Shown piece by piece: positions 10,718 through 63,382 of a stretch of DNA of 64,000 nt. Origin of the DNA: Candidatus Doudnabacteria bacterium (GTDB lineage: Bacteria; Patescibacteriota; Doudnabacteria; UBA920); the NCBI GenBank assembly GCA_963837465.1, contig CAWINB010000001.1, forward strand, positions 220,981 to 284,980. The letters are read 5' to 3'. The notes under the pieces were generated by a model that saw nothing but the letters and a program-made list of their open reading frames with translations, ran no database searches and was not told the DNA's origin. Numbering within the stretch: position 1 is the first letter of the stretch; each line of letters begins with the position of its first letter. A program made the position numbers and the translations under genes.

Positions 10718-11143
10718 TCAAACCAAGAGATTTAAATTCAAACTACTGTCCATTTCCCGCTTCATTTCTCCTTCAAGTCTTGTTAAAAATATTTCGCAGG
10801 TGGCGGAAATTACGAGTTTAAAAATATGGCCGCCGATGGCGGTTAAATCTTCGCGGGCAAATGTGCCATGGATGTGGAGCGCCGGTTGGCCGTTTGAAAT
10901 TGCGGCATTGCCGGTAAGCGAAGTTATTTCCAGCTTTTGCTTTATTTCGGTTTTAATGTAATTTTTTGATTTAAAATCAAAGTACGACAATTCCAGTTGG
11001 TCGCAGGCGCCGATTCCGTTAAAAAAAGCGGCCGTAATATTGTGGGCCGATAAAAATCGCGTTAAGGAAACAAAAACTTCTTCGCCTTTGTCAAAACGCA
11101 AGACAAAATAGTTGTTGTCTTGGAGAACTAGTTTCATAGTCAA
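10718..11143 (-). CDS. DUF296 (PPC/PCC domain) protein.
   Basis: 141 aa that reads like a DUF296 family member (...GIGACDQLELSYF...ALHIHGTFA...). Confidence 0.5.
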   Translation of the reverse strand: MTMKLVLQDNNYFVLRFDKGEEVFVSLTRFLSAHNITAAFFNGIGACDQLELSYFDFKSKNYIKTEIKQKLEITSLTGNAAISNGQPALHIHGTFAREDLTAIGGHIFKLVISATCEIFLTRLEGEMKREMDSSLNLNLLV

Positions 11144-11149
11144 TTGAAT

Positions 11150-11249
11150 TTACGAACGGAAACGAATCTGCGAATAGCTCCGAATACCGAAGCGTCGGCA
11201 TTCGTATATTCGTAAATATTAGTTGATTCGTCTGAATTCGTAGATTCGA
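11150..11249. repeat. Heptad-array palindromic element, ACGAAT family. It is an array of ACGAAT units followed by an array of ATTCGT units.
   Basis: acgaacggaaacgaatctgcgaatagctccgaat...attcgtatattcgtaa...attcgtctgaattcgtagattcg. Confidence 0.6.
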
Positions 11250-11633
11250 TTACGTTAGCTTAACGCTGCGCGCCAGCACATCCCGGACTTTTTGGATTAT
11301 ATCATCCACGGACTGGTCGGACTTAAGCAAATAATCCACAGCCCCGGCTTCCACGATTTTGCTTATAGTTTCCACATCACCAATGTTGGTCAAAACCACC
11401 ACCGGGATTTTGGCTGTGTTTGGGTCGGCTTTAAGCTCCCAAAGCACGGAAATACCGTCAAGTTTGGGCATCATAATATCCAATAAAACCAAATCAGGCA
11501 CTATTTCCTTGGCTTTGGCCACGGCTTCTTCGCCGTCGTAGGCCGGAGTAGGCTCAAAACCGGCCTGTTTAAGGGCTTCGCAAAGCGAGTTGGAGATCAA
11601 TTTGTCGTCTTCGGCCGCTAAAATTTTTGGCAT
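11250..11633 (-). CDS. Response regulator, receiver domain only (CheY-like).
   Basis: MPKILAAEDD...LVLLDIMMPKLDG...VVVLT. It is 127 aa with no output domain. Confidence 0.8.
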   Translation of the reverse strand: MPKILAAEDDKLISNSLCEALKQAGFEPTPAYDGEEAVAKAKEIVPDLVLLDIMMPKLDGISVLWELKADPNTAKIPVVVLTNIGDVETISKIVEAGAVDYLLKSDQSVDDIIQKVRDVLARSVKLT

Positions 11634-12012: not shown

Positions 12013-13683
12013 CTATTTATCCAGCGGCAACGAAAAAGAAAAAGTGCTGCCCAAGCCCTCTCCGGCCGACTCGGCCCAAATCCTGCCGCCGTGCGTCTCC
12101 ACAATCCCCCTGCTGACTACCAAACCCAAGCCTGTACCCTTGCGCGCGTGGTCTCCTGTTTTAAGCTGCTTAAACTTACTGAATAAGTCCGCCAAGTCTT
12201 CGCGCGAAACGCCGATGCCGGTATCTTTAACGGAAACCGTCGCAATTTTTTCGCCGGCGTTTAAAGAAAGATTCATGTTAATCTGGCCGCTGTCGCTGTA
12301 CTTAATGGCGTTGCTTAAAAGATTGCCCAAAACCTGGCTGATTCTGACCCGGTCAAACTTCAGCAAATATTTGTCGGGCGCGGTAACGCCAATAGTTAAA
12401 TGTTTAGCCTCGGCCTGCGGCTTAAAGGCTTTGGCTTGTTCGTTTATAACTTCCACAATATCATACTGCTGCGGGTTAAGCTCAAATTTTCCGGCTTCTA
12501 TTTTGGCCACGTCCAGCAAATCGTTAACCAGCTCCAGCATATTGTTGGAAGCGGTTTCTATGGTCATCATAGTATCTTTAATCTTTGCCTGCTCCACGCC
12601 CGTGGCGGCGGCAACGCTTTTGAGCAAACTTTCGCTGGACCAGCGCACGGCCGTTAAAGGCGCCCTTAGTTCATGCACCATCATGGCCGTAAATTCCTGC
12701 CGCGTTTTTTCCAAAGTTTTTTCCGTAGTGATGTCGTGGAAAAGCACGCTGGCGGCTATAATCTGGCCGCGATTGTCTTTAACCGGGGAAATAGTCAGTT
12801 CCAAAGCTTTATCTTTCAAGACCACTTCCGGCAAAGTAATGGTTTTGCCCTGGGCTATGGCCTGGTCAATTTTGGTGCGCAAATCCACTTTGCCGGCCAA
12901 GCCGTCTATAATATCAAACATTGTCAGCGGCTTGCCCGGAGCAATGCCTAAAATTCCCAAAATCACGGGATTATAAACCCCCAGCTCATTGTTTAAATCC
13001 ACGGTAATAACGCCGTCAGCCAGGGAATAAATTACGGCGGCCAGTTTGCCTTTTTCACTTTCCAGCACCGCCTGCAGTTTGGAAACCGCGGTCGCGGCCT
13101 GGTTGGTAATGGCGTACAAAATAGAAGCCTGCTCCCCGCCGTAGCGGCCTTTTTCCGAGGAAGCTACGTTAATCAACCCCACCAGTTTTTCGGAAATGAC
13201 CACGGGCAAATTAAAAAACGACTCTACCCCGACTTTTAAACTGTCATCCAAAATGGTGCCGGTTATGCTCTCGTCCACGCTTAAGGAATTCCGGATTTTT
13301 TTGTCCAAAATGGCTTCGTAGGACATCATCATTTTTTCCTTGACCTGCTCTATAAAATTATGATTGACGGGGTTGGCCACCTGGCACTTAAACACCGTCC
13401 GTCCGTCGTTTTCCAAAACCATATAGGAAACCGTATCGTAATTTAAAAGATTGCCCAGGGAGCTGGTAATAATATCCACGATTTTGTTGGTATTCAAAGA
13501 ATAGCCGATGCGCTCGCTGATTTCCTTGAGCACCTGGGCCTGGTAAACCCTTTGCTGGAGCGTTAAAGACTGGTTGGCCTGGGAACGCAAAAATTTGCGT
13601 TCGCGCAAAGAAGCGTAAATATAAGCGCTGACCACAATGGCCAGCATCACAAAATCTATGGCGATGAGGATGTTGATTATCAT
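12013..13683 (-). CDS. Sensor histidine kinase (N-terminal TM, sensory domain, HisKA + HATPase_c).
   Basis: H-box FTAMMVHELRAPLTAV, and N/G boxes in ...LLSNAIKYSDSG...KDTGIGV...GTGLGLVVSRG. Confidence 0.8.
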   Translation of the reverse strand: MIINILIAIDFVMLAIVVSAYIYASLRERKFLRSQANQSLTLQQRVYQAQVLKEISERIGYSLNTNKIVDIITSSLGNLLNYDTVSYMVLENDGRTVFKCQVANPVNHNFIEQVKEKMMMSYEAILDKKIRNSLSVDESITGTILDDSLKVGVESFFNLPVVISEKLVGLINVASSEKGRYGGEQASILYAITNQAATAVSKLQAVLESEKGKLAAVIYSLADGVITVDLNNELGVYNPVILGILGIAPGKPLTMFDIIDGLAGKVDLRTKIDQAIAQGKTITLPEVVLKDKALELTISPVKDNRGQIIAASVLFHDITTEKTLEKTRQEFTAMMVHELRAPLTAVRWSSESLLKSVAAATGVEQAKIKDTMMTIETASNNMLELVNDLLDVAKIEAGKFELNPQQYDIVEVINEQAKAFKPQAEAKHLTIGVTAPDKYLLKFDRVRISQVLGNLLSNAIKYSDSGQINMNLSLNAGEKIATVSVKDTGIGVSREDLADLFSKFKQLKTGDHARKGTGLGLVVSRGIVETHGGRIWAESAGEGLGSTFSFSLPLDK

Positions 13684-13689
13684 TTTTGT

Positions 13690-13803
13690 TTTTATCGAAT
13701 ATACGAATTCAGACGAATAAACGAATGTCTACGAATTTACGAATGATGGCGCCGGTATTCGTAGTTATTCGTGGATTCGTTTCTATTCGTAAATTCGATT
13801 TAT
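13690..13803. repeat. Heptad-array palindromic element, ACGAAT family.
   Basis: atACGAATtcagACGAATaaACGAATgtctACGAATttACGAATgatggcgccggtATTCGTagttATTCGTggATTCGTttctATTCGTaaATTCGattta. It shares the 3' motif ATTCGTAAATTCGATTTA with the copy at 58741-58851. Confidence 0.65.
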
Positions 13804-14070
13804 TTACAAAGCTTTAACCTGGGGATATTTTTCCAAAAGCGAATTTAAGGTCATTTGGGCAATCTGCCCGGACAGGGTCATATATTCGTTGGCCACGCCT
13901 TTTAAAACCATTTGCGGGTCGCCGTCCATATCCAAAACCGAGCCGTCATCCGTGACTTTTAACCCGGGGACTTTTCGCGCCTTATCCAAAGCAATATTCG
14001 GCCCCAAAACCACCATCTGCTTCTGGATTAAATCCGTCAGCATTTTTTTGTAATCACCCTGTTCCGGCAT
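13804..14070 (-). CDS. Hypothetical protein.
   Basis: 88-aa ORF that starts 27 bp upstream of its own ATG context and is co-oriented with neighbours. Confidence 0.35.
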   Translation of the reverse strand: MPEQGDYKKMLTDLIQKQMVVLGPNIALDKARKVPGLKVTDDGSVLDMDGDPQMVLKGVANEYMTLSGQIAQMTLNSLLEKYPQVKAL

Positions 14071-18574: not shown

Positions 18575-18627
18575 ACTTTTGTTAAAAACTCGTTTTAAAA
18601 ATTATTTTTAGAACGGATGATAGCAGT

Positions 18628-18750
18628 TTATATAACATAACACCGATAAACACGGATATTAAACAGATTAACACAGATGACTTTGCATCCTATCCGTGTT
18701 TATCTGTTTGTCCACTTCCGTGTTCATCCGTTTCCAAAACTTGTCCCTCT
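18628..18750. repeat. Right arm of the long inverted repeat.
   Basis: Its reverse complement aligns to 17887-18011 (ggaaacggatg[g/a]acacggaag...atctgtgttaatctgttt...gtgttatgttat). Confidence 0.6.
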
Positions 18751-18756
18751 TACTTT

Positions 18757-18879
18757 GAGTTACGAAACGCCATTCCGAGCGCAGCGAGGAATCCCTTTCG
18801 ATAAGAATTATCCTTAGATAAGGGATCCCTCACTCGGCTGCACTCGTTCGGGATGGCGAAAAGCCAGTGTTTCGTAATT
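18757..18879. repeat. Intergenic copy of the 'GGGATCCCTT'-core palindromic element. This is the longest copy.
   Basis: gttacgaaacgccattccgagcgcagcgaggaatccctt...aagggatccctcactcggctgcactcgttcgggatggcgaaaagccagtgtttcgtaat. Both the outer and inner arms are reverse complements. Confidence 0.55.
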
Positions 18880-18918
18880 CAAAGCCACAAACTTGTCTTC
18901 TTGTGTTTAAAATAGGGT

Positions 18919-19926: not shown

Positions 19927-19933
19927 CTAAATT

Positions 19934-20008
19934 GGAATTATGAATTAGGAATTAGGAATTATGGGCCTTGATCATAATTCCTAATTCATAATTCCTAATT
20001 CATAATTC
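19934..20008. repeat. Heptad-array palindrome, GAATTAG/GAATTAT family.
   Basis: ggaattatgaattaggaattaggaattatgggccttgatcataattcctaattcataattcctaattcataattc. Confidence 0.6.
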
Positions 20009-20075
20009 AGAACCTATTATACCAAAATCCCCAATGTTGTCATAGCCCTTAAAATTAAGCTATAATTGATACAAT

Positions 20076-23671: not shown

Positions 23672-23680
23672 TAACCCGCA

Positions 23681-23707
23681 TTGACAAAAAAAATAAAATC
23701 ATATAAT
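23681..23707 (+). promoter_or_regulatory. Consensus-hexamer promoter TTGACA-15-TATAAT, divergent from recJ.
   Basis: ttgaca at 23681-23686 and tataat at 23702-23707. Confidence 0.4.
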
Positions 23708-23714
23708 AAAGATA

Positions 23715-24016
23715 ATAGGTATCAATTACCGGCAGTAGGCTATCTTAACTTTTAGGAGCACGACTGACTAAAACAACTTCTCCACAAGAGAAGTTGTTTT
23801 GTTTAAGCCACATTTTATGATATGCTTACATTGTCGGAAGTTTGGGAAGTCGAAGTCAGCCGGGCTGACCGGTAATTGATACCTACCAGGTTCCGCTAAC
23901 AGCGGAATACGGTTCGACTCCGCCGGCTTCCGATACTTCCTTTCTCAAACCACCATTCTAAAATGATGCGCTAAGAGAGATGGGCAGGTTAGGAAGCTGC
24001 CCGGGGTCTTTTTTTT
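23715..24016 (+). ncRNA. Candidate structured non-coding RNA of about 300 nt with unknown identity (promoter to terminator, no ORF).
   Basis: An 11-bp long-range helix pairs UCAAUUACCGG (about 23712-23722) with CCGGUAAUUGA (about 23867-23877). There is a perfect 13-bp hairpin aaaacaacttctc-cacaa-gagaagttgtttt and a hairpin gtcagcc-g-ggctgac. A T-loop-like GGTTCGACTCC is present. The 3' end is an intrinsic terminator gggcag-gttaggaag-ctgccc followed by T8 (23982-24016). Confidence 0.35.
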
Positions 24017-24073
24017 ATCGAGGTTATATCCTCGGGTTTCGGTAGGTGTGGAGCCTACGCCCGCCTCTTTGTT

Positions 24074-34069: not shown

Positions 34070-34102
34070 GGGAGAGGGTTTAGGGTATAGGGTTAGGGCT
34101 GT

Positions 34103-34200
34103 GCCATTCCGAGTCCGGAGTGCATAAGGCGGACGAGGAATCCCTTAAATATTACCGATCGTGACAGTTAAGGGATCCTTCACCTTCAGATGCATTCAGG
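34103..34200. repeat. Degenerate intergenic copy of the 'GGGATCCCTT'-core palindromic element.
   Basis: gccattccgagtccggagtgcataaggcggacgaggaatcccttaa...ttaagggatccttcaccttcagatgcattcagg. A 'GGGTTAG'-type heptad stretch (gggtttagggtatagggttaggg) lies just upstream at 34075-34100. Confidence 0.4.
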
Positions 34201-34201
34201 T

Positions 34202-34582: not shown

Positions 34583-34640
34583 TTGTATTTTGCATCCATC
34601 CCGGAATTTTTAAGGCTGTAAAAATATCCGGGATCCAGAA

Positions 34641-34991
34641 TCATTTAATTATTTCATCATATAAATCTTTCCATTCCGGATTAGACTTTTCAATAAGCTC
34701 CAATTTCCATTTTCTTTGCCATTTTTTAAGCAATTTTTCTTTCTTTAAAGCCTGTTCTTTATCTTCAAATTGTTCAAAGTAAACTAAAATATGAACTTGG
34801 TATTTATTGGTAAAACCTTTTACTATATCATTTTTATGCTCATATACTCTTTTTATTAAATTCCTAGTGTAACCGACATACAAAGTTCCGTTTCTTTTGC
34901 TGGCTAAGATATACACGTAGTGATAAACATCAAATGGCATAGTTACTGGATCCCGGATATTTTTTGTTTGCTTATTTTTATTCTTTAACAA
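34641..34991 (-). CDS. GIY-YIG nuclease superfamily protein.
   Basis: ...YVYILASKRNGTLYVGYTRNLIKRVYEH.... Confidence 0.7.
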   Translation of the reverse strand: MLKNKNKQTKNIRDPVTMPFDVYHYVYILASKRNGTLYVGYTRNLIKRVYEHKNDIVKGFTNKYQVHILVYFEQFEDKEQALKKEKLLKKWQRKWKLELIEKSNPEWKDLYDEIIK

Positions 34992-35012
34992 AAAATTCCG
35001 GGATGGAAGCAG

Positions 35013-35984
35013 CTATCGTTTTCTCTTTAAAACTTTTTTAATCGCCGCAACTACCGCATCCTTATCCATCCCATATTTCTTAATCAATTCCTCCGGTTGG
35101 CCGGATTCGCCAAAAGTGTTGGGCATACCCAAGCTTTCTACGGGCACGGGATAATTTTGGGCCAGAACTTCGCAGACGGCCGAGCCGCAGCCAGCCATGG
35201 TTTGGTGTTCTTCCAAAGTTACTACGGCGCCGCATTTTTTTGCCGCCTCTATAATTGTAGCAGAGTCTATGGGTTTTATGGTGTGGTTATTCACAACCAT
35301 TACCGAAATTCCCTCTTTTTCCAAGTCTATAGCCGCCAAAAGAGCGTTATACAACACCGGGCCGCTGGCTATTACAGCAACATCTTTACCGTCCCTAAAA
35401 ATTTCCGCTTTGCCAACGGCAAAAGGAGTTTGCGCGGTGGTTATAACAGCAGTTTTAGATCTCCCTAAGCGAAAATACGCCGGACCTTTTATTTTTCCCA
35501 AAGCCACAACTGTTTTGCGGGCTTCTATGGCATTGCATGGGACTTCTACTATAAGGTTGGGCAAGACTCGGGTAATGGCAATGTCTTCCAAAGCCTGATG
35601 AGTAGCGCCGTCCGGGCCGACAGAAACTCCGGTATGACATCCTGCTACTTTTACGTTTGCCATACTGTAGCAAACGCTTACCCGCAATTGATCCCAATTG
35701 CGGCCGGGAGAAAAAGTCGCGTAAGAAGATACAAAAGCCGTTTTGCCGTAAAGCGCCAGGCCCGCGGCCAGACCCATCATATTCTGTTCGGCCACGCCGC
35801 ACTCCACAAATCTTTCCGGATACTTTATGCCAAAATCCAAAACCTGGGTGCTCTCGGCCAAATCCGCGGTCAGCACCACTACGTTTTCATCCGCCGCTCC
35901 CAAATCCAAAACCGCCTGTCCGTAACCCTTACGCGTGGCTTCCTGTTCTATGTCTAGTTGTCCGATTTTTGGATTTAGGTTCAT
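35013..35984 (-). CDS. Transketolase, C-terminal subunit (pyrimidine-binding + C-terminal domains).
   Basis: Strong match to split-transketolase subunit B (...GAAHHAL..., ...SYATFSPGRNWDQ...). Confidence 0.85.
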   Translation of the reverse strand: MNLNPKIGQLDIEQEATRKGYGQAVLDLGAADENVVVLTADLAESTQVLDFGIKYPERFVECGVAEQNMMGLAAGLALYGKTAFVSSYATFSPGRNWDQLRVSVCYSMANVKVAGCHTGVSVGPDGATHQALEDIAITRVLPNLIVEVPCNAIEARKTVVALGKIKGPAYFRLGRSKTAVITTAQTPFAVGKAEIFRDGKDVAVIASGPVLYNALLAAIDLEKEGISVMVVNNHTIKPIDSATIIEAAKKCGAVVTLEEHQTMAGCGSAVCEVLAQNYPVPVESLGMPNTFGESGQPEELIKKYGMDKDAVVAAIKKVLKRKR

Positions 35985-36010
35985 AGTGGTTGGCGTATAG
36001 CGTATAGTGG

Positions 36011-36376
36011 TTAGCGTTTAGGCTCTGATGTTAGCTTTCTAAGCATAGCGCCCAATATTTTTTGAACTTCATTCAATAATGAAAATGCCTTTTCATAGTC
36101 CAATTCAGGATATAACTTTTTCGCGATAATCAGCTGGGTTTCTAGCTCGCAAGCAGACCCATAGGCAATTCCTAAAAATTGAATAAATTCCGGTCTATGA
36201 TTTCTTCCATAACCTTCGGCAATGTTGGAGGGAATAGAAACAGATGCTCTTTGCATTTGGGAAGCCAGCGCATATAGTTCAGACTTAGGAAAAATTCTGG
36301 TAAGTTTGTAAGACTCTGATACTAAATCTATGGACTTTTGCCAAACTATTAATTCTTTGTAGGTTTTTATTTCCAT
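36011..36376 (-). CDS. Four-helix-bundle protein (the '23S rRNA intervening sequence protein' family). It is encoded between the two transketolase subunit genes.
   Basis: ...ELIVWQKSIDLV...FPKSELYALASQMQRASVSIPSNIAEGYGR.... Confidence 0.75.
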   Translation of the reverse strand: MEIKTYKELIVWQKSIDLVSESYKLTRIFPKSELYALASQMQRASVSIPSNIAEGYGRNHRPEFIQFLGIAYGSACELETQLIIAKKLYPELDYEKAFSLLNEVQKILGAMLRKLTSEPKR

Positions 36377-36417
36377 AAGTGCGCCCTCCCTATACCCTAA
36401 ACGCTATACGCTAACCG

Positions 36418-37269
36418 CTACTGATGCTCGCTTGCTATCCGTCCTCTTAAAGTCCGCAGTTCATTTAATGCCAAAGCCGCCTGCTCCTTGTTTGGCGGCG
36501 AGCCATGCCATTTATAATCACCTTCCATAAAATCCACACCCTTGCCCGCAATAGTGCGCGCGATAATCACGGTTGGTTTTTCGTAAATGGCCTTGGCTTC
36601 GTTGCAGGCGTTGATAATTTCCTGGACATTGTGGCCGTCTACTTCCAGCACGTGCCAGTTAAAAGCTTCGTACTTGGCGCGCAAACCCTCCAGCGGCATT
36701 ATGTCTTCCGTGTAGCCGTCTATTTGGATGTTGTTGCGGTCCATAATGGCCGTAATATTATGGAGTTTATTTTTCCCCGCGAACATGACCGCTTCCCAGG
36801 TCTGGCCTTCCTGCTGTTCGCCGTCGGACATTATTAAATAAATCCGGTTATGCTTGTGGTCCATCTTCAGGCCCAGCGCCATTCCCGCGGCTTGAGACGA
36901 ACCTTGCGCCAGCGGCCCCGAAGAAGTTTCTATTCCCGGCAAAGCCAAATTGTGCGGATGTCCGTGCAGACGGGTGCCGAATTTTCTAAGCGTCAACAAT
37001 TCCTCTTTTGGAAAATAGCCGGCCTCGGCCATAGTGGCGTACAAAACCGGACAGATATGCCCGCAGGACAAAATCAGCCGGTCCCGACCTTCCCATTTAG
37101 GGTCGGCGGGATTATATTCCAATACGTTAAAATAAAGCGCGGCAAAAACATCGGCCATATCCAAAGGCCCGGCGCTGTGCCCGCTGCCGGCGGCCAACAA
37201 CATCTCTATAATATCCTGCCTTATGTCGTTAGCCTTGTATTTTATTTCGTTGATGGAAAGTTTCGGCAT
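36418..37269 (-). CDS. Transketolase, N-terminal (thiamine-diphosphate-binding) subunit.
   Basis: ...GHSAGPLDMADVFAALYF..., ...LIMSDGEQQEGQTWEA.... Confidence 0.85.
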   Translation of the reverse strand: MPKLSINEIKYKANDIRQDIIEMLLAAGSGHSAGPLDMADVFAALYFNVLEYNPADPKWEGRDRLILSCGHICPVLYATMAEAGYFPKEELLTLRKFGTRLHGHPHNLALPGIETSSGPLAQGSSQAAGMALGLKMDHKHNRIYLIMSDGEQQEGQTWEAVMFAGKNKLHNITAIMDRNNIQIDGYTEDIMPLEGLRAKYEAFNWHVLEVDGHNVQEIINACNEAKAIYEKPTVIIARTIAGKGVDFMEGDYKWHGSPPNKEQAALALNELRTLRGRIASEHQ

Positions 37270-38417: not shown

Positions 38418-38500
38418 AGTAATTAGCGTTTAGCGCATAGTGATTAGCGGATAGATTAGGAACGCCTGTTTTCCTAAACGCTATACGCTAACCGCTAAAC
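38418..38500. repeat. GGGTTAG/GCGTTAG-family heptad palindromic element.
   Basis: ttagcgtttagcgcatagtgattagcggatag...cctaaacgctatacgctaaccgctaaacgcta. Confidence 0.55.
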
Positions 38501-38501
38501 G

Positions 38502-39185
38502 CTACATATTGATTATCTGATTAAAATCCTTGGCAATTAAACTTGCGCCACCGATTAGCAAACCGTCGACGTTGCGTTGTTTTAAAAATTCCGCGGCGTT
38601 GGCTAAATTAATACTGCCGCCGTACAAAACTTTTTCGGCTTTATATTTGTTTTTAATAAAAATCGCGATTTTTTCCGCGTGCTCCGGCGTGGCCGCTCTG
38701 CCGCTGCCAATGGCCCAAACCGGTTCGTAGGCCACTGCTACTTTTTTAGCATCAACATCTTTTAAATCCGCCTCCAGCTGGCCGCGCAAAACATCCACCA
38801 CGTCCAAATCATCCTGCTCCACGGTAGTACCAAAACCCACGCACAAAACCGGCGTAATTTTATGCTCCAGCAAAGACCGCAACTTAAAATTCACCATCCC
38901 ATCACTCTCACCCAAAGCCCGTTTTTCACTGTGCCCGACAATGCAATATTTAACCCCCAAATCTTTCAACTGCGCCGCGCTGGTCTGCCCGGTAAACGCG
39001 CCCTTGTCCTGCCAAAAACAATCCTGCGCGCCCAAGTTGGGATAATTGATGGACGACAAATAGATGGTCGGCGGACAAAGCACAACTTTATTTTTGGCTT
39101 TAGTGGAAATCGAAGACGCCAACTTCTGCGCGTCTTTTAGAGTATTAGGATTTAACTTCCAATTTGCGATAATAAGTTTTTTCAT
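38502..39185 (-). CDS. tpiA: Triosephosphate isomerase.
   Basis: ...IIANWK..., ...VAYEPVWAIGSG..., ...GGASL.... Confidence 0.85.
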   Translation of the reverse strand: MKKLIIANWKLNPNTLKDAQKLASSISTKAKNKVVLCPPTIYLSSINYPNLGAQDCFWQDKGAFTGQTSAAQLKDLGVKYCIVGHSEKRALGESDGMVNFKLRSLLEHKITPVLCVGFGTTVEQDDLDVVDVLRGQLEADLKDVDAKKVAVAYEPVWAIGSGRAATPEHAEKIAIFIKNKYKAEKVLYGGSINLANAAEFLKQRNVDGLLIGGASLIAKDFNQIINM

Positions 39186-39192
39186 ATGGTTA

Positions 39193-40218
39193 TCACTCCC
39201 CCTTTAAAAATTTCGTGCTCACCTCCGGTGGAATCGGATTCACCGGAATTCCGGTGGCGAATTCAAAGCCGGCCCAAATGGTAATGCGGGGAAAAATCGT
39301 TAGATGCCAGTGGTAGGCTTTTTCTTCGTGCGCGCTGTGGCGATGATCTCCGTCAGGCCTTTTTAAAGGCATGTTGTGGATGTAAAAATTCAGCGGAGGG
39401 TCGGAAAGCTTGGCGTATAATTGCCCCAGCGTAACCTTAAGCACAAAGGACAGATGCTTAATTTCATCGGCCGACATATCCTCAAAACGCGCTCCGTGTC
39501 TTTTGGGCAGAATCCAGGTTTCAAACGGGCTGCGGCTGGCATAGGCGGAAATTACCACAAAATGTTCGCTGTCATGAACCACGCGGTCTTTTACGCTCAA
39601 CTCCTCTTTTATGATATCACAATAAACGCAAGCGCGGTTAGCCTGGTAATAATGGTAGCAGCCCAAAATTTCGCTATGGATGTGCGGCGGCACAATGGGC
39701 GTGGCCAATAACTGATAATGAGGATGGACAATGGACGCTCCCGCATCGCGCCCGTGGTTATGGAAAATCTGCACGTACTGCAGTTCCGGATTATTAGCAA
39801 GCCGGTTTATGCGGTCAATAAAAGTTTTAATGGACAGCTCCACTATGGAAATGGATTGCAGCGCCACCGGCTCGTTATGCTTGCGCGTCACAATAACCTC
39901 ATGGTCGCCGTTGCCGCTGTGGGAAACGTAAAATTCCTTGTGTTGGTAAATTTTAGTTTGTTCCAGGGAAGCAAACTTGTTGGGAATAATCCTGACTTCC
40001 CAATTACTGTCCTTAGGGTCCAAAATATTCCCGGCCGCGCCATAGCGCGCGATTTCCGGATTTGCCTGCTCATTGCCCGGACAAAACACGCAGCCCGCGT
40101 CCACCTCCGGCACCCCGTGCATAACACTATAAGTAGCGTACTGGTCCGGCCGCTTGCCGCGACTCGGAGCAATCAGCACCCAGTTTTTTGTTATTGGGTT
40201 TTGCCTAAATTCAGACAT
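39193..40218 (-). CDS. galT: Galactose-1-phosphate uridylyltransferase (HIT-like).
   Basis: ...CVFCPGNE..., ...HPHYQLLATP.... Confidence 0.75.
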   Translation of the reverse strand: MSEFRQNPITKNWVLIAPSRGKRPDQYATYSVMHGVPEVDAGCVFCPGNEQANPEIARYGAAGNILDPKDSNWEVRIIPNKFASLEQTKIYQHKEFYVSHSGNGDHEVIVTRKHNEPVALQSISIVELSIKTFIDRINRLANNPELQYVQIFHNHGRDAGASIVHPHYQLLATPIVPPHIHSEILGCYHYYQANRACVYCDIIKEELSVKDRVVHDSEHFVVISAYASRSPFETWILPKRHGARFEDMSADEIKHLSFVLKVTLGQLYAKLSDPPLNFYIHNMPLKRPDGDHRHSAHEEKAYHWHLTIFPRITIWAGFEFATGIPVNPIPPEVSTKFLKGE

Positions 40219-40220
40219 AA

Positions 40221-40262
40221 GGGGTTAGGGGTTAGGGGTTAGGGGTTAGGGGTTAGGGGTTA
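40221..40262. repeat. (GGGGTTA)6 perfect tandem heptamer array beginning 3 nt upstream of the galT start codon.
   Basis: ggggttaggggttaggggttaggggttaggggttaggggtta. On the mRNA strand this is (TAACCCC)6 immediately 5' of the AUG. Confidence 0.85.
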
Positions 40263-40296
40263 GAAAGTGCATTACTCTCGCCCTATTCCCTTGCCT

Positions 40297-44319: not shown

Positions 44320-44733
44320 TTAGCACAATAAAATAATTCTCACCATATTTTTTCTGGTTTGTGTGGCAAAATAGCTTTGAGCTATGGCTATCGGTTCTTT
44401 GTTAGGGTCGCCATTTTGTGCAATAAGATAGCAGGCATAACGGTCCAATTTATAATCCCCTACTTGCCTGACTGTATTTGAACCCACATTTACCATTTTA
44501 ACCGTCCGGTTAAAATGGTTATCCACAACCTGGCCGCTATTGATACAAGCCCTGGCCGCGCGGCCAATAACCTCTTCGGCTTTTTGCCAATTAGGATAAT
44601 CCAAAAGCGGCATTAATTCCCTAGCCTGCCAATATTCTACTCCGTTTTTATCAATTTTTTTAATGCTCTCAAAATCTCTGTGCGGGCCCTGAATTGTAAT
44701 TTCCTTTTCCATAAATTGCTTAGAGCCTGCCAA
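44320..44733 (-). CDS. Hypothetical protein, possibly of the Bro-N / DNA-damage-inducible-protein-D type.
   Basis: ...FESIKKIDKNGVEYWQARELMPLLDYPNWQKAEEVIGRAARAC... gives a weak motif-level resemblance only. Confidence 0.3.
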   Translation of the reverse strand: MAGSKQFMEKEITIQGPHRDFESIKKIDKNGVEYWQARELMPLLDYPNWQKAEEVIGRAARACINSGQVVDNHFNRTVKMVNVGSNTVRQVGDYKLDRYACYLIAQNGDPNKEPIAIAQSYFATQTRKNMVRIILLC

Positions 44734-46359: not shown

Positions 46360-46367
46360 AAAAATAA

Positions 46368-46533
46368 ATTAGGACTTCCGCGTTTAATGCTATAAATAAT
46401 TAAATTAATGAATTAAACCACAGGGGCTTGGCCAACTTCGTCGTTATTTTCCTGCGGTGTTTGTCGTCGTAGGTGAACTACGCCTCCAAACATCCTCGGA
46501 AAATGCCTAGAATTTGGCCAAGCGCGGAAGTCC
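46368..46533 (-). ncRNA. Candidate small SRP RNA (ffs): a rod-like structured RNA immediately upstream of dnaX.
   Basis: A 13-bp terminal inverted repeat TAGGACTTCCGCG / CGCGGAAGTCCTA closes an imperfect hairpin of about 140 nt. The hairpin contains TTGGCCAA / TTGGCCAA, AUUUUCC / GGAAAAU, GUUUG / CAAAC and an apical CGUAG-UUCAC-CUACG. A symmetric 4x4 internal loop GAGG / ACGA lies near the apex. An extended -10 TGgTATAAT lies upstream on the minus strand (plus 46558-46566). ffs upstream of dnaX is a known arrangement in Firmicutes. Confidence 0.3.
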
Positions 46534-46590
46534 TACGATTCTCAAATTTGTTAGTTTATTATACCATCCCCGGAGACCGGGGGGAAATTA

Positions 46591-46631
46591 AACAAGGGCG
46601 CCCCTTGCTCGACGCAAGGGGCGCCCTTGTT
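46591..46631 (-). terminator. GC-rich perfect palindrome (18-bp arms) downstream of the metallophosphoesterase gene. It is a probable terminator.
   Basis: aacaagggcgccccttgc-tcgac-gcaaggggcgcccttgtt. Confidence 0.5.
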
Positions 46632-46648
46632 GGCCCTGTGATTCGGGC

Positions 46649-50043: not shown

Positions 50044-50117
50044 AAATTTACATCTCCTTAATTATCTTAATTTTACCAACTTGCCAAAAAAAGTAAAGCT
50101 GCAAAACCTCTCATTAA

Positions 50118-50180
50118 CCATCCATGCCTGAAAGCACTGATAAGGGATCCCTCGGATGCACTCGGGATGGCAGATGGATG
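50118..50180. repeat. Short copy of the 'GGGATCCCTT'-core palindromic element.
   Basis: ccatccatgcctgaaagcactgataagggatccctcggatgcactcgggatggcag. Confidence 0.35.
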
Positions 50181-50334
50181 ATTACTGCGCAGCAGAATGG
50201 TCAATTTTACTTAATCCTTATTAAAGTCAGCGTTTCCAAGATCGCCCATAAATGGGCACCCTGCATCCGATTCCCTGATTCATTCGACAGCCAATTTTAC
50301 TTAATTTTATTTAATTACCAAATTTTACTTAATC

Positions 50335-52893
50335 CTAAAGCCCCCTCTCAACATCCGGCAGCGCCTCGGCCATGTTTTCGGCTACTTGGCCGGCTTCCAG
50401 GATTTCTTCTTCCACTTCGGCGCGCGGACGACCGTGTTTGAGGCGGGATAACTGGCGAATGGCCTGCGCTTGCTCCTCATTGCCATTTCTTAACAGCGGG
50501 TAGGTGGCAATATTAAACGGCTTGCTGGCCGTGCCGTTTATCATTAATTTTAAGTAGGCGTTGTAGCGGTCCACATTGACCAAATCAAACTCGTTAAAAG
50601 TCGGCTTAAATTCCTTGGCCATAACCTCGCTGTCCTCGGAACCTATCCTGAAACAAACCATACTGCCGGCGTTGCCGAACACGGCGTCGCGAAGGTCTTT
50701 GGATCCCGCTCCCTGGGCGCCGGCCTGGGTTTCCAGCTGTCCCAAATATTGGTGGGCGATAATTAAATTCAGGCGGTATTTTCTGGCTTCCGAAAGGATG
50801 GATGAAAAAGCGTCCGTGATAAAGTTTTGGAACTCATCCACATAAAGATAAAAATCCGGACGTTTATCTTCTTTAACGTCGGCCCGGGCCAGCGCGGCCA
50901 TCTGCAATTTTGAAACGATAATCAAGCCCAAAAGCTTGGCGTTGATTTCGCCAACTTTGCCCTTGGCTAGGTTTATAAGCAAAATTTTGCGGCCGTCCAT
51001 AACCTCGCGGAAATTAAAAGCGGATTTTGGCTGGCCGACTATATTGCGCATCATAGCGTTTTCCACAAACCGCCCGACTTTGGAAATTAAGTAGCCAAGC
51101 ATTTCCGACTTATGGAAGTCCGACGTCTTGGCCATTTCCTTTTCCCAAAACAGCCGCACGACAGGATCTTTAAGTTTGCTGACTTTGTACTTTTGAAATT
51201 CCGTGTCCGTAAAAATTCTTGGGATATCTGTAATAGTTCCTGGATGTTCTTCGTCCGCCATCAGCGTAAGCATGGCGTTTCTCATGTTGTGCTCAAACAT
51301 CGGGCCAAGCATAGCCGGGTCGGTAACCAGTTTGTAAAAAATCTGGATCATTTCCTGCACGGCGAAATCTTTTTGTTCTTCGCTGTCCACCTGCAGCATG
51401 TTTAATCCCATGGGCCGCTCCATATCAAACGGCTCAAACAAAATTACGTCCTCGGCGCGCTCCTTGGGTATGTGCGGCAAAATATCTTCTATAAAATCCC
51501 CGTGCGGGTCTATAACGCAAAGCCCTTCGCCGTTTTTAATATCCTGTACCGACATATACTTCATAATTTCCGTCTTGCCGCTGCCGGTGCGGCCGAGAAT
51601 ATACATATGCCTTCTGCGGTCATCGCGCTGCATAAAAACTTTTGTCTCCAGTCCGCGGTAAATATTGCGGCCCAAAAGCACGCCTTCCTTGGGCAAGTTA
51701 ACCGGCGGCGGCGCTTTTTTGGATATCAGCCATTTAATGTTGGGCGTTTCTATGTAAGGCGTGGGCAGGTGCCAAAGGCTGGCCAGTTCCTCTGTGTTTA
51801 AAATGCTCTGGCTGCCGTTGTCGCGAAAAACCCGAAAAATATAATCTTTTAAGATATCATTTTTGTCCCTTTTTTTTGTATGCAAACCGTTAAACGGCGG
51901 CATATTGTATTGCAAAAAAGCGGCCAGCAAATTGCGCATATGGCTATTGGCGTTGCCGGGAATGGATGATGATGTAATAAGGCGGATGTTGGTTTTATAG
52001 CCCGGCCGGCTGGCTTTTTCTTCCAGCTTTTTTACAATTTCCTGCTGCATCGGCGTTAGCTGGATGGGCGAGGCGTAGCCGGATAAATCTTTGTGGGTAT
52101 GAGAACCCTGTTGCTGCTGGCCGCTGCCGCCAATGCCGGCCAGGCCTTTGCCCACGCCGCGCATAAAACCTATAAGCAAACGGTAAACGTGCCCCCGCTC
52201 CACCATTTCCGGATTTTTTCCCTGCTGGATTTCCAAAGCCATATGCCGCGGCCGCCCCTGCCACAATGTGCCGGCCGGACTTAATATAAACTGGATGGCC
52301 GCGCCTTCGTTCTCCTGAAGTTTGCTCATGGCATTGGTCAGGGCGCTGAGCGGGTCGGACTCCATGGTTTTGTAAGTGCGGTAAGGATAAACGTACTGCT
52401 TGTTCAGCCTGAGTTCTTCCACTTCCACTTTGCCGTCTTTTTGGAAAGGATTATAGCCGGGCACCTGCTCAATAAAGGCGTGCGGATACTGGGCCTGGAT
52501 TTGTTTTTCCACCAGCTCTTGCAGATGCTTGGGACAGTTAACATAAAAAGAAATTTTTTTCTCCGTGCAGGCGATTTCAAAACTGAAATAATCCTTGCCC
52601 AAAAGCCAGCCCTTGTTGTGGCCGGACTCCGAAAGCGTGGTAAACAATTGTTCGGCTATGGCAATCAGCGCTTTTTTTTCTTCCTCGCTTTTAGGCCGGT
52701 CATCCGTCTTATCCGGCGACCCCTCCTTAGGCATCTGGATTTCCAAAAACACCCAGTCCTGGATCCTGGGCACCACATGCTTTGTATGATATATATGCCG
52801 CTTATAATAATAAAAAAAGACAGCCGCAAAAACGACTATCAAAACCAATAAAACCAAAACCGCAATCTGAATTGAGTTTATTTCAAGGGGCAT
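50335..52893 (-). CDS. Membrane-anchored AAA ATPase of the VirD4/TraG/TraD (type IV coupling protein-like) / DUF87 type.
   Basis: N-terminal TM segment. Walker A YILGRTGSGKTEIMK...VIDPHGDF. Walker B-like FYLYVDEFQNF. 852 aa. Confidence 0.55.
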   Translation of the reverse strand: MPLEINSIQIAVLVLLVLIVVFAAVFFYYYKRHIYHTKHVVPRIQDWVFLEIQMPKEGSPDKTDDRPKSEEEKKALIAIAEQLFTTLSESGHNKGWLLGKDYFSFEIACTEKKISFYVNCPKHLQELVEKQIQAQYPHAFIEQVPGYNPFQKDGKVEVEELRLNKQYVYPYRTYKTMESDPLSALTNAMSKLQENEGAAIQFILSPAGTLWQGRPRHMALEIQQGKNPEMVERGHVYRLLIGFMRGVGKGLAGIGGSGQQQQGSHTHKDLSGYASPIQLTPMQQEIVKKLEEKASRPGYKTNIRLITSSSIPGNANSHMRNLLAAFLQYNMPPFNGLHTKKRDKNDILKDYIFRVFRDNGSQSILNTEELASLWHLPTPYIETPNIKWLISKKAPPPVNLPKEGVLLGRNIYRGLETKVFMQRDDRRRHMYILGRTGSGKTEIMKYMSVQDIKNGEGLCVIDPHGDFIEDILPHIPKERAEDVILFEPFDMERPMGLNMLQVDSEEQKDFAVQEMIQIFYKLVTDPAMLGPMFEHNMRNAMLTLMADEEHPGTITDIPRIFTDTEFQKYKVSKLKDPVVRLFWEKEMAKTSDFHKSEMLGYLISKVGRFVENAMMRNIVGQPKSAFNFREVMDGRKILLINLAKGKVGEINAKLLGLIIVSKLQMAALARADVKEDKRPDFYLYVDEFQNFITDAFSSILSEARKYRLNLIIAHQYLGQLETQAGAQGAGSKDLRDAVFGNAGSMVCFRIGSEDSEVMAKEFKPTFNEFDLVNVDRYNAYLKLMINGTASKPFNIATYPLLRNGNEEQAQAIRQLSRLKHGRPRAEVEEEILEAGQVAENMAEALPDVERGL

Positions 52894-57659: not shown

Positions 57660-57711
57660 TTGTTATTCATCCCGATATGAAAAAATAAATAAGGTTTGTC
57701 TGACAAAAGAT

Positions 57712-58170
57712 TTATAACACCTTGCCACCGGCTTTCTCAATTGCTTCTTTAACGGATTTTGAGGCCGGTAACTTTATATTGAGTTTCTTTTTTATTTCCC
57801 CGCCCAAAATTTTGACTTTGGAGGTTTTATTGTCCACCAAACCTTTGGCTATTAAAGCAGCCAAAGTTACCGTGGCACCGTCGTCAAAAGCGCTGAGCTT
57901 GCTTAGGGAAATTACCGCTGGCTTGGCGTTTAAGGCCCTAAAACCCCGCAATTTCGGCAATTGGCGGACCAGAGGCTGGCGGCCGCCTTCAAAATTAGCC
58001 GGCATTTTGCTGTGGCCGGTTCGGGCAGTTTGTCCTTTGCCGCCGCGTGTGGAATAAGTACCATGGCCGCTGCCAAGACCGCGTCCGACAACTTTTTTGC
58101 GGCGGGTGGATTTGGGATGTTTTGTGAGTTGGTGGAGTTTGATCATATTTGGGAATGAATTATGAAGCAT
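57712..58170 (-). CDS. rplO: 50S ribosomal protein L15.
   Basis: ...GRGLGSGHGTYSTRGGKGQTARTG.... Confidence 0.9.
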   Translation of the reverse strand: MLHNSFPNMIKLHQLTKHPKSTRRKKVVGRGLGSGHGTYSTRGGKGQTARTGHSKMPANFEGGRQPLVRQLPKLRGFRALNAKPAVISLSKLSAFDDGATVTLAALIAKGLVDNKTSKVKILGGEIKKKLNIKLPASKSVKEAIEKAGGKVL

Positions 58171-58227
58171 GAATTAGGATTTATGACATGGGCGCATCCC
58201 TAATTCATAATTCCGGATTCCTAATTC
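58150..58227. repeat. Heptad-array palindrome, GAATTAG/GAATTAT family, between rpsE and rplO.
   Basis: tgaattatgaagcatgaattaggatttatgacatgggcgcatccctaattcataattccggattcctaattccta. Confidence 0.55.
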
Positions 58228-58731
58228 CTATTTGCGCATCTGAGAAAGTGTTTCCTTACTCTTCATCATTTTAAACGCGGCAAAAACCGCTTTGACATTG
58301 TTGACTTTATTGTTGCTGCCAAGCATTTTGGAAACAACATTTTTGACTCCCGACAGCTCCATAACGCTGCGCACCGCGCCGCCGGCAATAACACCGGTAC
58401 CGGGCTTGGCCGGCTTAAGCATCAAACTGGAAGACTTGTACTTTATTTTAAGTTCGTGGGGAATGGTGCCGTTAATTAAAGGCAGCTGGATTAAATTCTT
58501 TTTGGCCTGGTTGACAGCTTTGTTGACGCTCTCGGAAACATCCGCGCCTTTTTTTAAGCCCATACCAACCTTGCCTTTGTGGTCGCCAATAACAACCAGC
58601 GCCCTAAAGCGCATTCTTTTACCGCCGGCCGTGACACGCGTAACGCGTTTAACCTCCACGACTTTTTGGTCGAATTCAGACCTTTCGCGTTCGCCTTCAC
58701 CGCCCCTTGATTGTCTTCGTCTTTTTTCCAT
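58228..58731 (-). CDS. rpsE: 30S ribosomal protein S5.
   Basis: S5 dsRBD and C-terminal domain motifs. Confidence 0.9.
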   Translation of the reverse strand: MEKRRRQSRGGEGERERSEFDQKVVEVKRVTRVTAGGKRMRFRALVVIGDHKGKVGMGLKKGADVSESVNKAVNQAKKNLIQLPLINGTIPHELKIKYKSSSLMLKPAKPGTGVIAGGAVRSVMELSGVKNVVSKMLGSNNKVNNVKAVFAAFKMMKSKETLSQMRK

Positions 58732-58740
58732 AAATGTATC

Positions 58741-58851
58741 GAATCTACGAATTTAAACGAATCCACGAATACCTACGAATCCGTGAATCGACGAATTCGT
58801 AAATTCGTTGTCATTCGTTGATTCGTCCCATTCGTAAATTCGATTTATTAA
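58741..58851. repeat. Heptad-array palindromic element, ACGAAT family, between rplR and rpsE.
   Basis: atCGAATctaCGAATttaaaCGAATccaCGAATacctaCGAATccgtGAATcgaCGAATTCGtaaATTCGttgtcATTCGttgATTCGtcccATTCGtaaATTCGattta. Confidence 0.65.
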
Positions 58852-59205: not shown

Positions 59206-59282
59206 ATAATAGGGGTTAGGGGTTAGCGTTTAGGGGTTAGATGGGCCCGTCCAGACCCTAATCCCTATACGCTATCCGCTTG
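59206..59282. repeat. GGGTTAG-family heptad element (imperfect inverted halves) abutting the rplR start.
   Basis: taggggttaggggttagcgtttaggggttagatgggcccgtccagaccctaatccctatacgctatccgc. Confidence 0.55.
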
Positions 59283-59283
59283 T

Positions 59284-60600: not shown

Positions 60601-60716
60601 TGAGGTAGGGATTAGGGTATAGGGATTAGGGTATAGGGATTAGGGTATAGGGATTAGGGTATAGAAGGAAACGCTTTCCTGCTAAACGCTAATCCCTAGC
60701 CGCTAGACGCTAATTT
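60601..60716. repeat. Tandem 14-bp repeat (GGGATTAGGGTATA)x4 abutting the rpsZ start, followed by an inverted GCGTTAG-type segment.
   Basis: tagggattagggtatagggattagggtatagggattagggtatagggattagggtatagaaggaaacgctttcctgctaaacgctaatccctagccgctagacgctaa. Confidence 0.7.
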
Positions 60717-61254: not shown

Positions 61255-61320
61255 AGAATTAGTTATTTAGTGGATAGCAGTTAGCGTCTAGCCCTCTATA
61301 CGCTAACCGCTATACGCTCG
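61255..61320. repeat. GCGTATA/GCGTTAG-family heptad element between rplX and rplE.
   Basis: ttagtggatagcagttagcgtctagccctctatacgctaaccgctatacgctcgtc. Confidence 0.5.
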
Positions 61321-61321
61321 T

Positions 61322-61639: not shown

Positions 61640-61649
61640 AGGATTATTT

Positions 61650-61726
61650 TTACGAAGTACGAATGTTTACGAACTTACAAAGGGAAACCGATTCGTACTT
61701 TCGTACCTGTTCGTACTTCGTAAAAT
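61650..61726. repeat. Heptad-array palindromic element, TACGAA family, between rplN and rplX.
   Basis: TACGAAgTACGAAtgttTACGAActtacaaagggaaaccgaTTCGTActtTCGTAcctgTTCGTAcTTCGTAaaatc. Confidence 0.65.
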
Positions 61727-63272: not shown

Positions 63273-63382
63273 AGGGTATTAAGTAAAATTAAGTAAAATT
63301 TTTAATTAAATAAAATTGAAGCGCAGTCGCAGTCAAATTTTACTTAATTTTACTTAATTATGGCCAATTTTAATTAATCCTC

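Follow-up and report, generated by a model that had tools for sequence, protein, structure and literature searches.

The intervening sequence (IVS) of the Coxiella 23S rRNA gene has an inverted-repeat stem, is cut out by RNase III, has a loop with an open reading frame (ORF) for a four-helix-bundle protein and contains tandem heptamers of variable number (PMC4990558). In candidate phyla radiation (CPR) bacteria, rRNA genes harbor non-intron insertions encoding GIY-YIG or 23S_rRNA_IVP proteins, together with many short insertions that have no ORF (PMC11270868). These rRNA intervening sequences are the closest described objects to the intergenic palindromes analyzed here, which lie in a 64,000-nucleotide stretch of a Candidatus Doudnabacteria genome (contig CAWINB010000001.1, positions 220,981 to 284,980; hereafter the window), and four of which are built from ACGAAT units followed by ATTCGT units. 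We consider it rather probable that the palindromes belong, as ORF-less forms, to several families of insertion elements that fold into hairpins, resemble IVSs or miniature inverted-repeat transposable elements (MITEs) and have colonized the spacers between co-transcribed genes in part of Candidatus Doudnabacteria.

The resemblance to rRNA intervening sequences extends to several features. In both cases inverted repeats form a long stem around an insert, forms with and without an ORF occur, and the ORF in the loop can encode a PF05635 protein (in the window, ORF 36011-36376) or, in CPR bacteria, a GIY-YIG protein; heptamers lie in the 5′ part of the Coxiella IVS, and the distribution among relatives is sporadic (PMC4990558, PMC11270868). 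The hairpins described here differ in location and abundance, being situated in the spacers of protein-coding operons rather than in rRNA helices and reaching a very high copy number, with nearly every ribosomal protein (r-protein) junction occupied. They differ also in being two-sided arrays of regular units, and in having cargo of the GxxExxY PD-(D/E)XK type. The window is free of rRNA genes, and all copies studied lie between protein-coding genes and thus not in an rRNA helix. Excision by RNase III is a feature of the IVS, and for the present hairpins it is proposed by analogy.

An earlier note on this DNA, made from the sequence alone, had described four palindromes, each with a (T)ACGAA(T) array, a short centre and then the reverse-complement units. 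All four have this layout, with the following refined extents:

58738-58844, minus strand: ACGAAT-type hairpin of subfamily (a), ORF-less, filling the spacer between rplR (L18) and rpsE (S5)
13694-13799, minus strand: ACGAAT-type hairpin of subfamily (a), ORF-less, between an 88-aa ORF (13804-14070) and a sensor kinase gene (12013-13683)
11146-11247, minus strand: degenerate ACGAAT-type hairpin between a response-regulator gene (11250-11633) and a PCC-domain gene (10718-11143)
61648-61725, minus strand: TACGAA-type hairpin of subfamily (b) (TTTACGAAGTACGAA…), ORF-less, at the junction of rplN (L14) and rplX (L24)

ACGAAT units at the window loci are spaced at 10, 8, 10 and 8 nt. As plain hexamers, ACGAAT and ATTCGT (38 copies) are not over-represented overall in the window; 27 of the 38 copies are intergenic, with intergenic DNA making up 15% of the window, and the 11 matches to ACGAA-N3-5-ACGAA-N3-5-ACGAA all fall within the four loci, where dinucleotide shuffles give an expectation of 0.01. 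The loci at 13690-13803 and 58741-58851 do share the identical end ATTCGTAAATTCGATTTA, and the suspected ability to fold was borne out by strong predicted hairpins. For the spacer 58732-58851 the RNA fold reaches -50.6 kcal/mol (z-score -8.35, equaled by 0 of 200 shuffles) and the DNA fold -25.1 kcal/mol (z -4.7), while the degenerate copy at 11146-11247 is predicted to fold with -37.4 kcal/mol (z -6.8). The arms of 13694-13799 are 43 nt long and 81% complementary.

To describe the anatomy of subfamily (a), we used 52 non-redundant copies that could be oriented via their flanking genes. The distance to the upstream stop codon is 0-7 nt (mode 3), and the next ATG mostly comes 6 nt past ATTCGAT. 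Each arm contains 4-6 cores, with the number of units differing between copies. The cores of the 5′ arm follow a spacing of 8-9-8-10(-8), which the 3′ arm repeats in mirror image, and the core sequence, (A/T/G)CGAA(T/G), hardly varies. By contrast, the spacers of 2-4 nt are variable and less complementary between the arms than expected (4/48 against 14.5, 0/48 against 4.1 and 10/48 against 21.6), so that inter-arm covariation is absent in this subfamily and the spacers are in effect anti-complementary. The stem is a chain of helices of about 7 bp with conserved mismatches (1x1, 3x3 and 4x4) between them, and the mismatch of GGA opposite CTA sets the orientation of the element, which is mostly constant relative to transcription. 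That the cores are invariant while the spacers are free points to recognition of a specific sequence, and the core units are probably sites for protein binding. The suggestion that the palindromes are arrays of binding sites for a protein, made in the earlier note, is plausible on the basis of this pattern of near-invariant cores and variable spacers, and a protein encoded in the loop of related elements (see below) is now a candidate for the binding partner.

The position of the hairpins relative to genes is equally regular. Almost all genes in the window are on the minus strand, and the r-protein genes form the run rpsC-rplP-rpmC-rpsQ-rplN-rplX-rplE-rpsN-rpsH-rplF-rplR-rpsE-rplO-secY, with spacers of 52-139 nt at every junction. 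Pfam supports the L18/S5 and L14/L24 assignments made before (L18 58852-59205, S5 58228-58731, L14 61727-62119, L24 61322-61639). The other two ACGAAT loci lie within an operon of sensor kinase, response regulator, PCC and SpoU genes. While the palindromes had been placed immediately 5′ of a gene start, and do lie just before the start codon, this is only part of the rule: the whole spacer is filled, so that they also lie just after a stop codon. The hairpin 58738-58844, for instance, starts 7 nt past the rplR stop and ends 6 nt ahead of the rpsE ATG (…ATTCGAT-ACATTT-ATG). In a set of 193 strong hairpins, the median distance from the upstream stop to the stem is 2 nt (interquartile range 1-6) and that from the stem to the next start 11 nt (interquartile range 5-16). 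The usual start context in the window is A/T-rich (…ATTT directly before ATG), and Shine-Dalgarno (SD) motifs are essentially absent, preceding 9 of 78 window genes, compared to 6.2±2.2 in shuffles, and 66 of 1036 r-protein genes of the clade (loci L001-L080). We also note that the rpsE-rplO interval (57660-58227) contains no gene for L30 (rpmD), the lack of which is usual in CPR bacteria.

A more dynamic picture emerges from the relatives, for which 80 species-level loci were collected with the S5 protein (68-91% identity), all of them from Candidatus Doudnabacteria or unclassified Patescibacteria. Across these loci, the 13 r-protein junctions show a bimodal length distribution that peaks at 0-30 nt and at 70-110 nt, the longer peak being the hairpin-filled one. 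All junctions are filled in the window as well as in L002, L006, L016, L058 and L066, and none in L037, L042, L045, L048, L050, L067 and L078. Absence from close relatives had been named in the earlier note as a sign of neutral repeats, and it is found in part, in that many Doudnabacteria are without any hairpins; this speaks for selfish or neutral elements and against a function that the host cannot do without. Orthologues of the window hairpin 58738-58844 are present at the rplR/rpsE junction of L002, L004, L035, L061 and L064, and subfamily (b) occurs also at other junctions of L008, L016 (three times), L019, L021 and L024. The same junction carries different unit flavors in different species. 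In L021, L023 and L024, whose flanking genes are 87-92% identical, one junction is empty (19 nt) in two genomes and holds a 99-nt ACGAAT element in the third, other junctions hold unrelated families, and identity stops exactly at the stop and start codons. Members of subfamily (a) are also found at non-homologous junctions, those at rplR/rpsE of L004 and rplE/rpsN of L023 being approximately 95% identical including spacers, centre and ends, and L002 contains two paralogous copies in one genome. Given the turnover at fixed junctions and the presence of the same subfamily elsewhere, the hairpins are dispersed repeat families with fast gain and loss, and not conserved operon signals. A scan with the exact subfamily (a) pattern matched at least 120 metagenome contigs; approximately 20 matches were plain tandem arrays in unrelated contigs (e.g., L092, L101, L115, L154, L193) and were set aside. 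Carriage by phages was considered and rejected, as the pattern matched 0 viral contigs. A very small GC-rich palindrome (CCTGCCTACCGGCAGGCAGG, with longer variants) lies within the arms of TACGAA-type and other hairpins at a few loci (L022; rplN/rplX and rpsH/rplF of L024; rplF/rplR of L061; L151), and looks like an insertion that entered the elements secondarily.

Some elements of this type enclose a gene. At eight metagenome loci, the two half-arms are parted by a gene of 125-131 aa, co-oriented with its neighbors, which starts right past the last 5′ unit and stops right ahead of the first 3′ unit, and so occupies the centre of the palindrome. The encoded proteins belong to the family TIGR04256 GxxExxY / PF13366 PDDEXK_3, for which all homologues found are from Patescibacteria. 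When contexts were picked by the protein alone, unit-array arms were present in 8 of the 9 for which DNA was available. The flanking arms are of the flavors ACGAAT, ACGGAT, ATGCGAAT and TACTAA, and in L201 a GxxExxY gene is found at three consecutive junctions of one operon, with TACCAA, ACGGAT and ACGAAT arms. Protein identity amounts to 60-70% within a flavor, 38-56% between related flavors and 30-38% to the protein with TACCAA arms, and three subclades each occur at least twice with their own arm flavor. Arm flavor tracks protein subclade. Two of the carriers are syntenic with the window: L209 has the order sensor kinase, response regulator, PCC, [GxxExxY], SpoU with ACGGAT arms, and the window has an ORF-less ACGAAT hairpin at its response regulator/PCC junction; L213 has the order RuvX-GalT-[GxxExxY]-TIM-RpiB-[IVS protein]. 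The literature on GxxExxY / PDDEXK_3 reports no link to repeats. As side observations, the L201 operon is type-IV-secretion-like (PrgI, TraC-like, VirB4-like), and the window contains a TrwB/VirD4-like coupling-protein gene (50335-52893) and a Bro-N domain gene (44320-44733). At L212 1-81, a 305-aa gene call combines PDDEXK_3 and RuvX domains, probably through an artefactual fusion in which the arm of an element was read through.

Two elements of the window itself carry ORFs:

35985-36420, minus strand: ORF-carrying heptad element with loop ORF 36011-36376, between two transketolase subunit genes
34583-35012, minus strand: ORF-carrying element of a non-unit flavor with the small GIY-YIG gene 34641-34940

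ORF 36011-36376 matches PF05635 23S_rRNA_IVP (3.7e-36) and TIGR02436 (3.2e-36), the four-helix-bundle protein. The 5′ arm (36420-36388) consists of TAGCGGT TAGCGTA TAGCGTT TAGGGTA TAGGG, its first TAG being the stop codon of the upstream transketolase-N gene, and the 3′ arm (36022-35985) of CCTAAAC GCTAACC ACTATAC GCTATAC GCCAACC. A run of 25 nt is identical between an arm of this element (36420-36396) and an arm of an ORF-less hairpin approximately 2 kb away (38497-38473). Further four-helix-bundle genes with heptad arms are found in L032, L103 and L213. In this small sample two grammars go with two cargo families, the 8-10-nt spacing with GxxExxY and strict heptads with the IVS protein. Transketolase is split here into two genes, 36418-37269 (N-terminal) and 35013-35984 (pyrimidine-binding and C-terminal), with the IVS-protein element exactly between them. 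The GIY-YIG gene 34641-34940 lies within nested inverted repeats (TCCATCCCGGAATTTTT…AAAATATCCGGGATCCAG / CTGGATCCCGGATATTTT…AAAAATTCCGGGATGGA). Parallel to this element, small GIY-YIG genes at approximately 10330-10760 of L156 are flanked by GTCATCCTGAGC…GAAGGATCTC arms, a third pairing of cargo and arms, and ORF-less hairpins of the same type fill r-protein junctions in L006 and L073-L076. A generic scan for ORFs in inverted flanks returned mostly ordinary genes between two copies of one hairpin family.

The r-protein spacers of the window are mostly strong hairpins of short units, of the ACGAAT flavor, of TAGCG/TAGGG heptads, of GGAATTA heptads, of TTAAGTAAAA decamers and of others, so that at least 10 different core sequences coexist within 64 kb. 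The GGAATTA and TAGGG/TAGCG units listed in the earlier note form genuine hairpins by fold and inverted-repeat analysis:

38418-38501, minus strand: ORF-less heptad (TAGCG) hairpin between a 227-aa gene (38502-39185) and rpiB
59206-59283, minus strand: ORF-less heptad (TAGGG/CCCTAA) hairpin at the rplF/rplR junction
60601-60714, minus strand: ORF-less heptad (TAGCG / CCCTAAT-CCCTATA) hairpin at the rplE/rpsN junction, its 3′ array longer than its 5′ array
61255-61321, minus strand: ORF-less heptad (TAGCG) hairpin at the rplX/rplE junction
58171-58227, minus strand: GGAATTA/TGAATTA heptad hairpin at the rpsE/rplO junction
19929-20012, no strand assigned: GGAATTA/TGAATTA heptad hairpin, 93-96% complementary, between the divergently oriented mreB and PEGA-domain genes
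63273-63382, minus strand: hairpin of 10-nt TTAAGTAAAA units at the rpsC/rplP junction, with arms of 24 nt that are 100% complementary

The 7-bp grammar proposed for the whole set fits the TAG-type flavors and fails for the ACGAAT class with its 8-9-8-10 spacing. Against Rfam 15 at the gathering score, the window gave a single tRNA and no match of a hairpin to a family, and permissive thresholds added only chance microRNA-hairpin matches far under threshold. Intrinsic terminators were rejected as an explanation, since the region 56-64 kb contains 16 terminator-like sites compared to 12.8±4.5 in shuffles; downstream of the elements the sequence is RYATTT-ATG, with no T-runs. A promoter scan showed no enrichment. 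Related to the heptads is an array at 40219-40296, where CTAACCC is repeated six times in a perfect, telomere-like tandem directly before the start codon of gene 39193-40218; only a short complementary partner exists upstream, and the array is essentially one-armed and largely unpaired in the predicted fold.

The best reading of the palindromes, in our view, is that of selfish stem-loop elements, IVS-like or MITE-like, in their ORF-less form, and we infer both mobility and processing of the RNA. The arms would pair in the transcript and loop the insert out, so that the upstream stop and the SD-less downstream start stay close; such looping out would explain why essential operons tolerate only inserts that are flush and foldable. 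By analogy to the rRNA IVS, RNase III may cut the stem. At the DNA level, the loop-encoded protein could aid the spread of the elements in a homing-like or transposition-like manner, with the repeated cores as its binding sites; on this view a hairpin lacking the ORF would be either a non-autonomous copy or a remnant.

Several points weigh against this reading and it should be interpreted with caution. The hairpins may have existed first and been invaded by the ORF afterwards, in which case the ORF would not be their mobilizer, and a host function could account for the bias in orientation and for the constant distance to the start codon. The species-level comparison of L021/L023/L024 and of L043/L044 revealed neither a target-site duplication nor a clean insertion boundary; when empty and filled sites are compared, the filled ones look wholly replaced across the spacer. 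Neither tblastn nor a custom hidden Markov model detected a GxxExxY gene in the window or the 80 r-protein loci (approximately 1.3 Mb), so that a master copy in the source genome is assumed and not seen. A PDB sequence search with GxxExxY gave no relative, the literature reports no activity for GxxExxY or the IVS protein, and the GGAATTA and TTAAGTAAAA flavors have so far no ORF-bearing partner. Finally, the sense strand has more A·C than G·U mismatches, both in the best hairpins of 1,127 spacers (749 vs. 599) and in the strong hairpins alone (257 vs. 167), and in 35 of the 52 subfamily (a) copies the antisense strand folds more strongly than the sense strand. Selection of structure on the sense RNA predicts an excess of G·U and the opposite was found, so that selection for pairing in the mRNA cannot be claimed.

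A bolder version of the same idea would make the elements a new mobile class, in which a protein of approximately 125 aa (GxxExxY PD-(D/E)XK or four-helix-bundle IVS protein) recognizes the arrays of 6-7-nt cores in the inverted arms and moves the stem-loop cassette to positions just after stop codons, with the ORF-less hairpins as non-autonomous progeny. We regard this as possible, but tentative.

Were the hairpins instead cis-acting mRNA signals that benefit the host and are kept by selection, whether as 3′ stabilizers, as processing sites that uncouple cistrons (cf. the repetitive extragenic palindromic (REP) sequences in malE-malF) or as devices for translational coupling, their precise placement flush with the stop and 6-11 nt before an SD-less start would be expected, as would the strong predicted RNA folds, the retention of some copies as orthologues between species, and an orientation bias (purine-rich arm first in 110 vs. 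77 cases; the GGA…CTA orientation dominant in subfamily (a)). We nevertheless find this scenario unlikely, given that many Doudnabacteria have no hairpins and close relatives are variably filled, that unrelated families swap at one junction, that mismatches are conserved in the stem while spacers do not covary and sense G·U is not favored over A·C, that there is neither a terminator signature nor an Rfam family, and that small genes of a selfish type are found in the loops. The near-identity of elements at non-homologous junctions within and between species, which extends to non-repetitive spacers and ends, bears on a different scenario, in which slippage builds arrays of heptamer type in place and template switching copies them into the other arm, all of it neutral and with neither mobility nor a protein partner. 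Among the long simple repeats of bacteria, tandem heptamers are the most frequent, and they can lie just ahead of start codons, also in r-protein operons (PMC4679880); the number of units varies between copies (4-6 per arm), and one-armed arrays exist at 40219-40296 and 60601-60714, all of which agree with slippage. However, slippage would not be expected to give a spacing of 8-9-8-10 that is non-uniform yet conserved, nor half-arms that flank genes precisely, and the high identities between loci already suggest recent monophyletic bursts; we consider such an origin quite improbable.

The invariant cores, the variable spacers of fixed length and the two-sided layout would also suit operator or iteron arrays on the DNA, recognized by a host regulator or nucleoid protein in transcription or replication, and one copy (19929-20012) does lie in a divergent promoter region. 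Set against this are the presence of at least 10 core sequences within 64 kb, the location of most copies inside operons with no enrichment at promoters, and their absence from related genomes with the same genes, which leave this explanation very little probability. Guide-RNA arrays of the TIGR-Tas type share with the palindromes the tandem, interspaced conserved segments, the variable spacers and the occurrence in a CPR genome, as TIGR systems occur in CPR bacteria (PMC12045711). TIGR arrays, though, have 36-nt units with two spacers of approximately 8-9 nt and lie beside a Nop-domain Tas gene (PMC12045711), while here the units are spaced at 7-10 nt with spacers of 2-4 nt, and the palindromic arrays are scattered over dozens of housekeeping junctions with no Tas-like gene seen adjoining. 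The length of the spacers and the architecture effectively refute this candidate, and its probability is negligible.

Returning to the reading of the hairpins as selfish stem-loop elements, the best functional analogy is to REP doublets (REPINs) and their REP-associated tyrosine transposases (RAYTs). In both systems extragenic palindromes exist in many copies, long hairpin doublets measure approximately 100 nt, a single-gene partner is flanked by the repeats, and repeat families pair with protein variants. The partners are different, being GxxExxY, 23S_rRNA_IVP and GIY-YIG proteins in the present case, and no Y1 (IS200/IS605-like) transposase was seen between arms, in a window scan for Y1 that was not exhaustive. 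The hairpins also differ in having no GTAG-type REP head, in their periodic arms of 6-7-nt cores and in the number of families within a genome of approximately 1 Mb. The label of a REP-like system, used in the earlier note, therefore suits them in the broad sense of dispersed, multi-copy, extragenic palindromes with conserved ends and presence or absence in relatives, and does not in the narrow sense, as there is no REP/RAYT signature. MITEs are similarly small and ORF-less, with terminal inverted repeats, near-identical copies at unrelated sites and a longer ORF-bearing form that shares the ends, and transposons with subterminal binding repeats (Tn7, CACTA-type ends) have several motifs in inverted arrangement per end. 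The hairpins differ from both in that no target-site duplication was found, the cargo proteins of 120-135 aa include no known transposase, and insertion is confined to a few nt past stop codons.

Two further comparisons can be drawn. Heptamer repeats of the TAACTGA type are known from Beggiatoaceae, cyanobacteria and Bacteroidetes, where they are found upstream of SD-less starts, including in r-protein operons; like the TAG-type arrays they consist of 7-nt units, contain stop codons in all frames, directly precede SD-less starts and are patchy in their phylogeny, but they are almost always direct arrays of one heptamer, with 1 “indirect” case in 170 (PMC4679880). Most of the arrays described here, apart from one-armed ones such as that at 40219-40296, form inverted pairs; they are of many flavors and can enclose genes. 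Free-standing homing-endonuclease genes are also small nuclease-superfamily genes between host genes, and their cycle of gain, degeneration and loss would find a counterpart in the ORF-less remnants. The repeated-unit arms of the hairpins have no equivalent in classical homing sites. Homing endonucleases of this kind include GIY-YIG types and, in the PD-(D/E)XK superfamily, I-Ssp6803I. Existing descriptions cover the hairpins only partly; from rRNA intervening sequences they are set apart by lying in mRNA spacers, by their density, by arrays on both sides and by cargo of the GxxExxY family.

Other structured sequences of the window are distinct from these elements. A second, larger intergenic repeat (approximately 130-340 nt, with predicted folds down to -129 kcal/mol) is present at 18575-18918, 34070-34201, 46360-46648 and 50062-50334, as well as at 1400-1500 of L212; it contains the motifs GAGGGATCCCTTA / GGAATGGCG and GGCATTTTCCGAGGAT…GGAGGCGTAG… and has no Rfam match. 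In L212, a repeat copy of the 46360-46648 type has broken the 5′ arm and the N-terminus of a GxxExxY element. A very stable structure (-133 kcal/mol, z -5.7) is predicted for the 402-nt spacer 23672-24073; Rfam yields no family above threshold there and ARAGORN reports no tmRNA, and a sub-threshold tRNA-Sec-like match is located at 23845-23931 on the plus strand.

Genomes of approximately 1 Mb are expected to have minimal intergenic spacers. Here, nearly every junction of the most conserved operon carries a hairpin of approximately 100 nt, and these hairpins are exchanged faster than the flanking genes diverge. For the annotation of CPR metagenome bins this has a practical consequence, as the hairpins yield spurious ORFs and gene fusions such as the PDDEXK_3 and RuvX fusion of L212. 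The periodic grammar of the units would be explained by repeated cores for protein recognition. The link between hairpins and loop proteins makes the nature and spread of rRNA intervening sequences and their orphan ORFs testable with defined unit arrays and a matching protein, and the loop genes are a first testable clue to how such elements spread. If the elements do represent a new mobile class, this would provide a function for two large orphan protein families, and suggest a common origin for rRNA intervening sequences, intergenic heptamer repeats and the hairpins of operon spacers.

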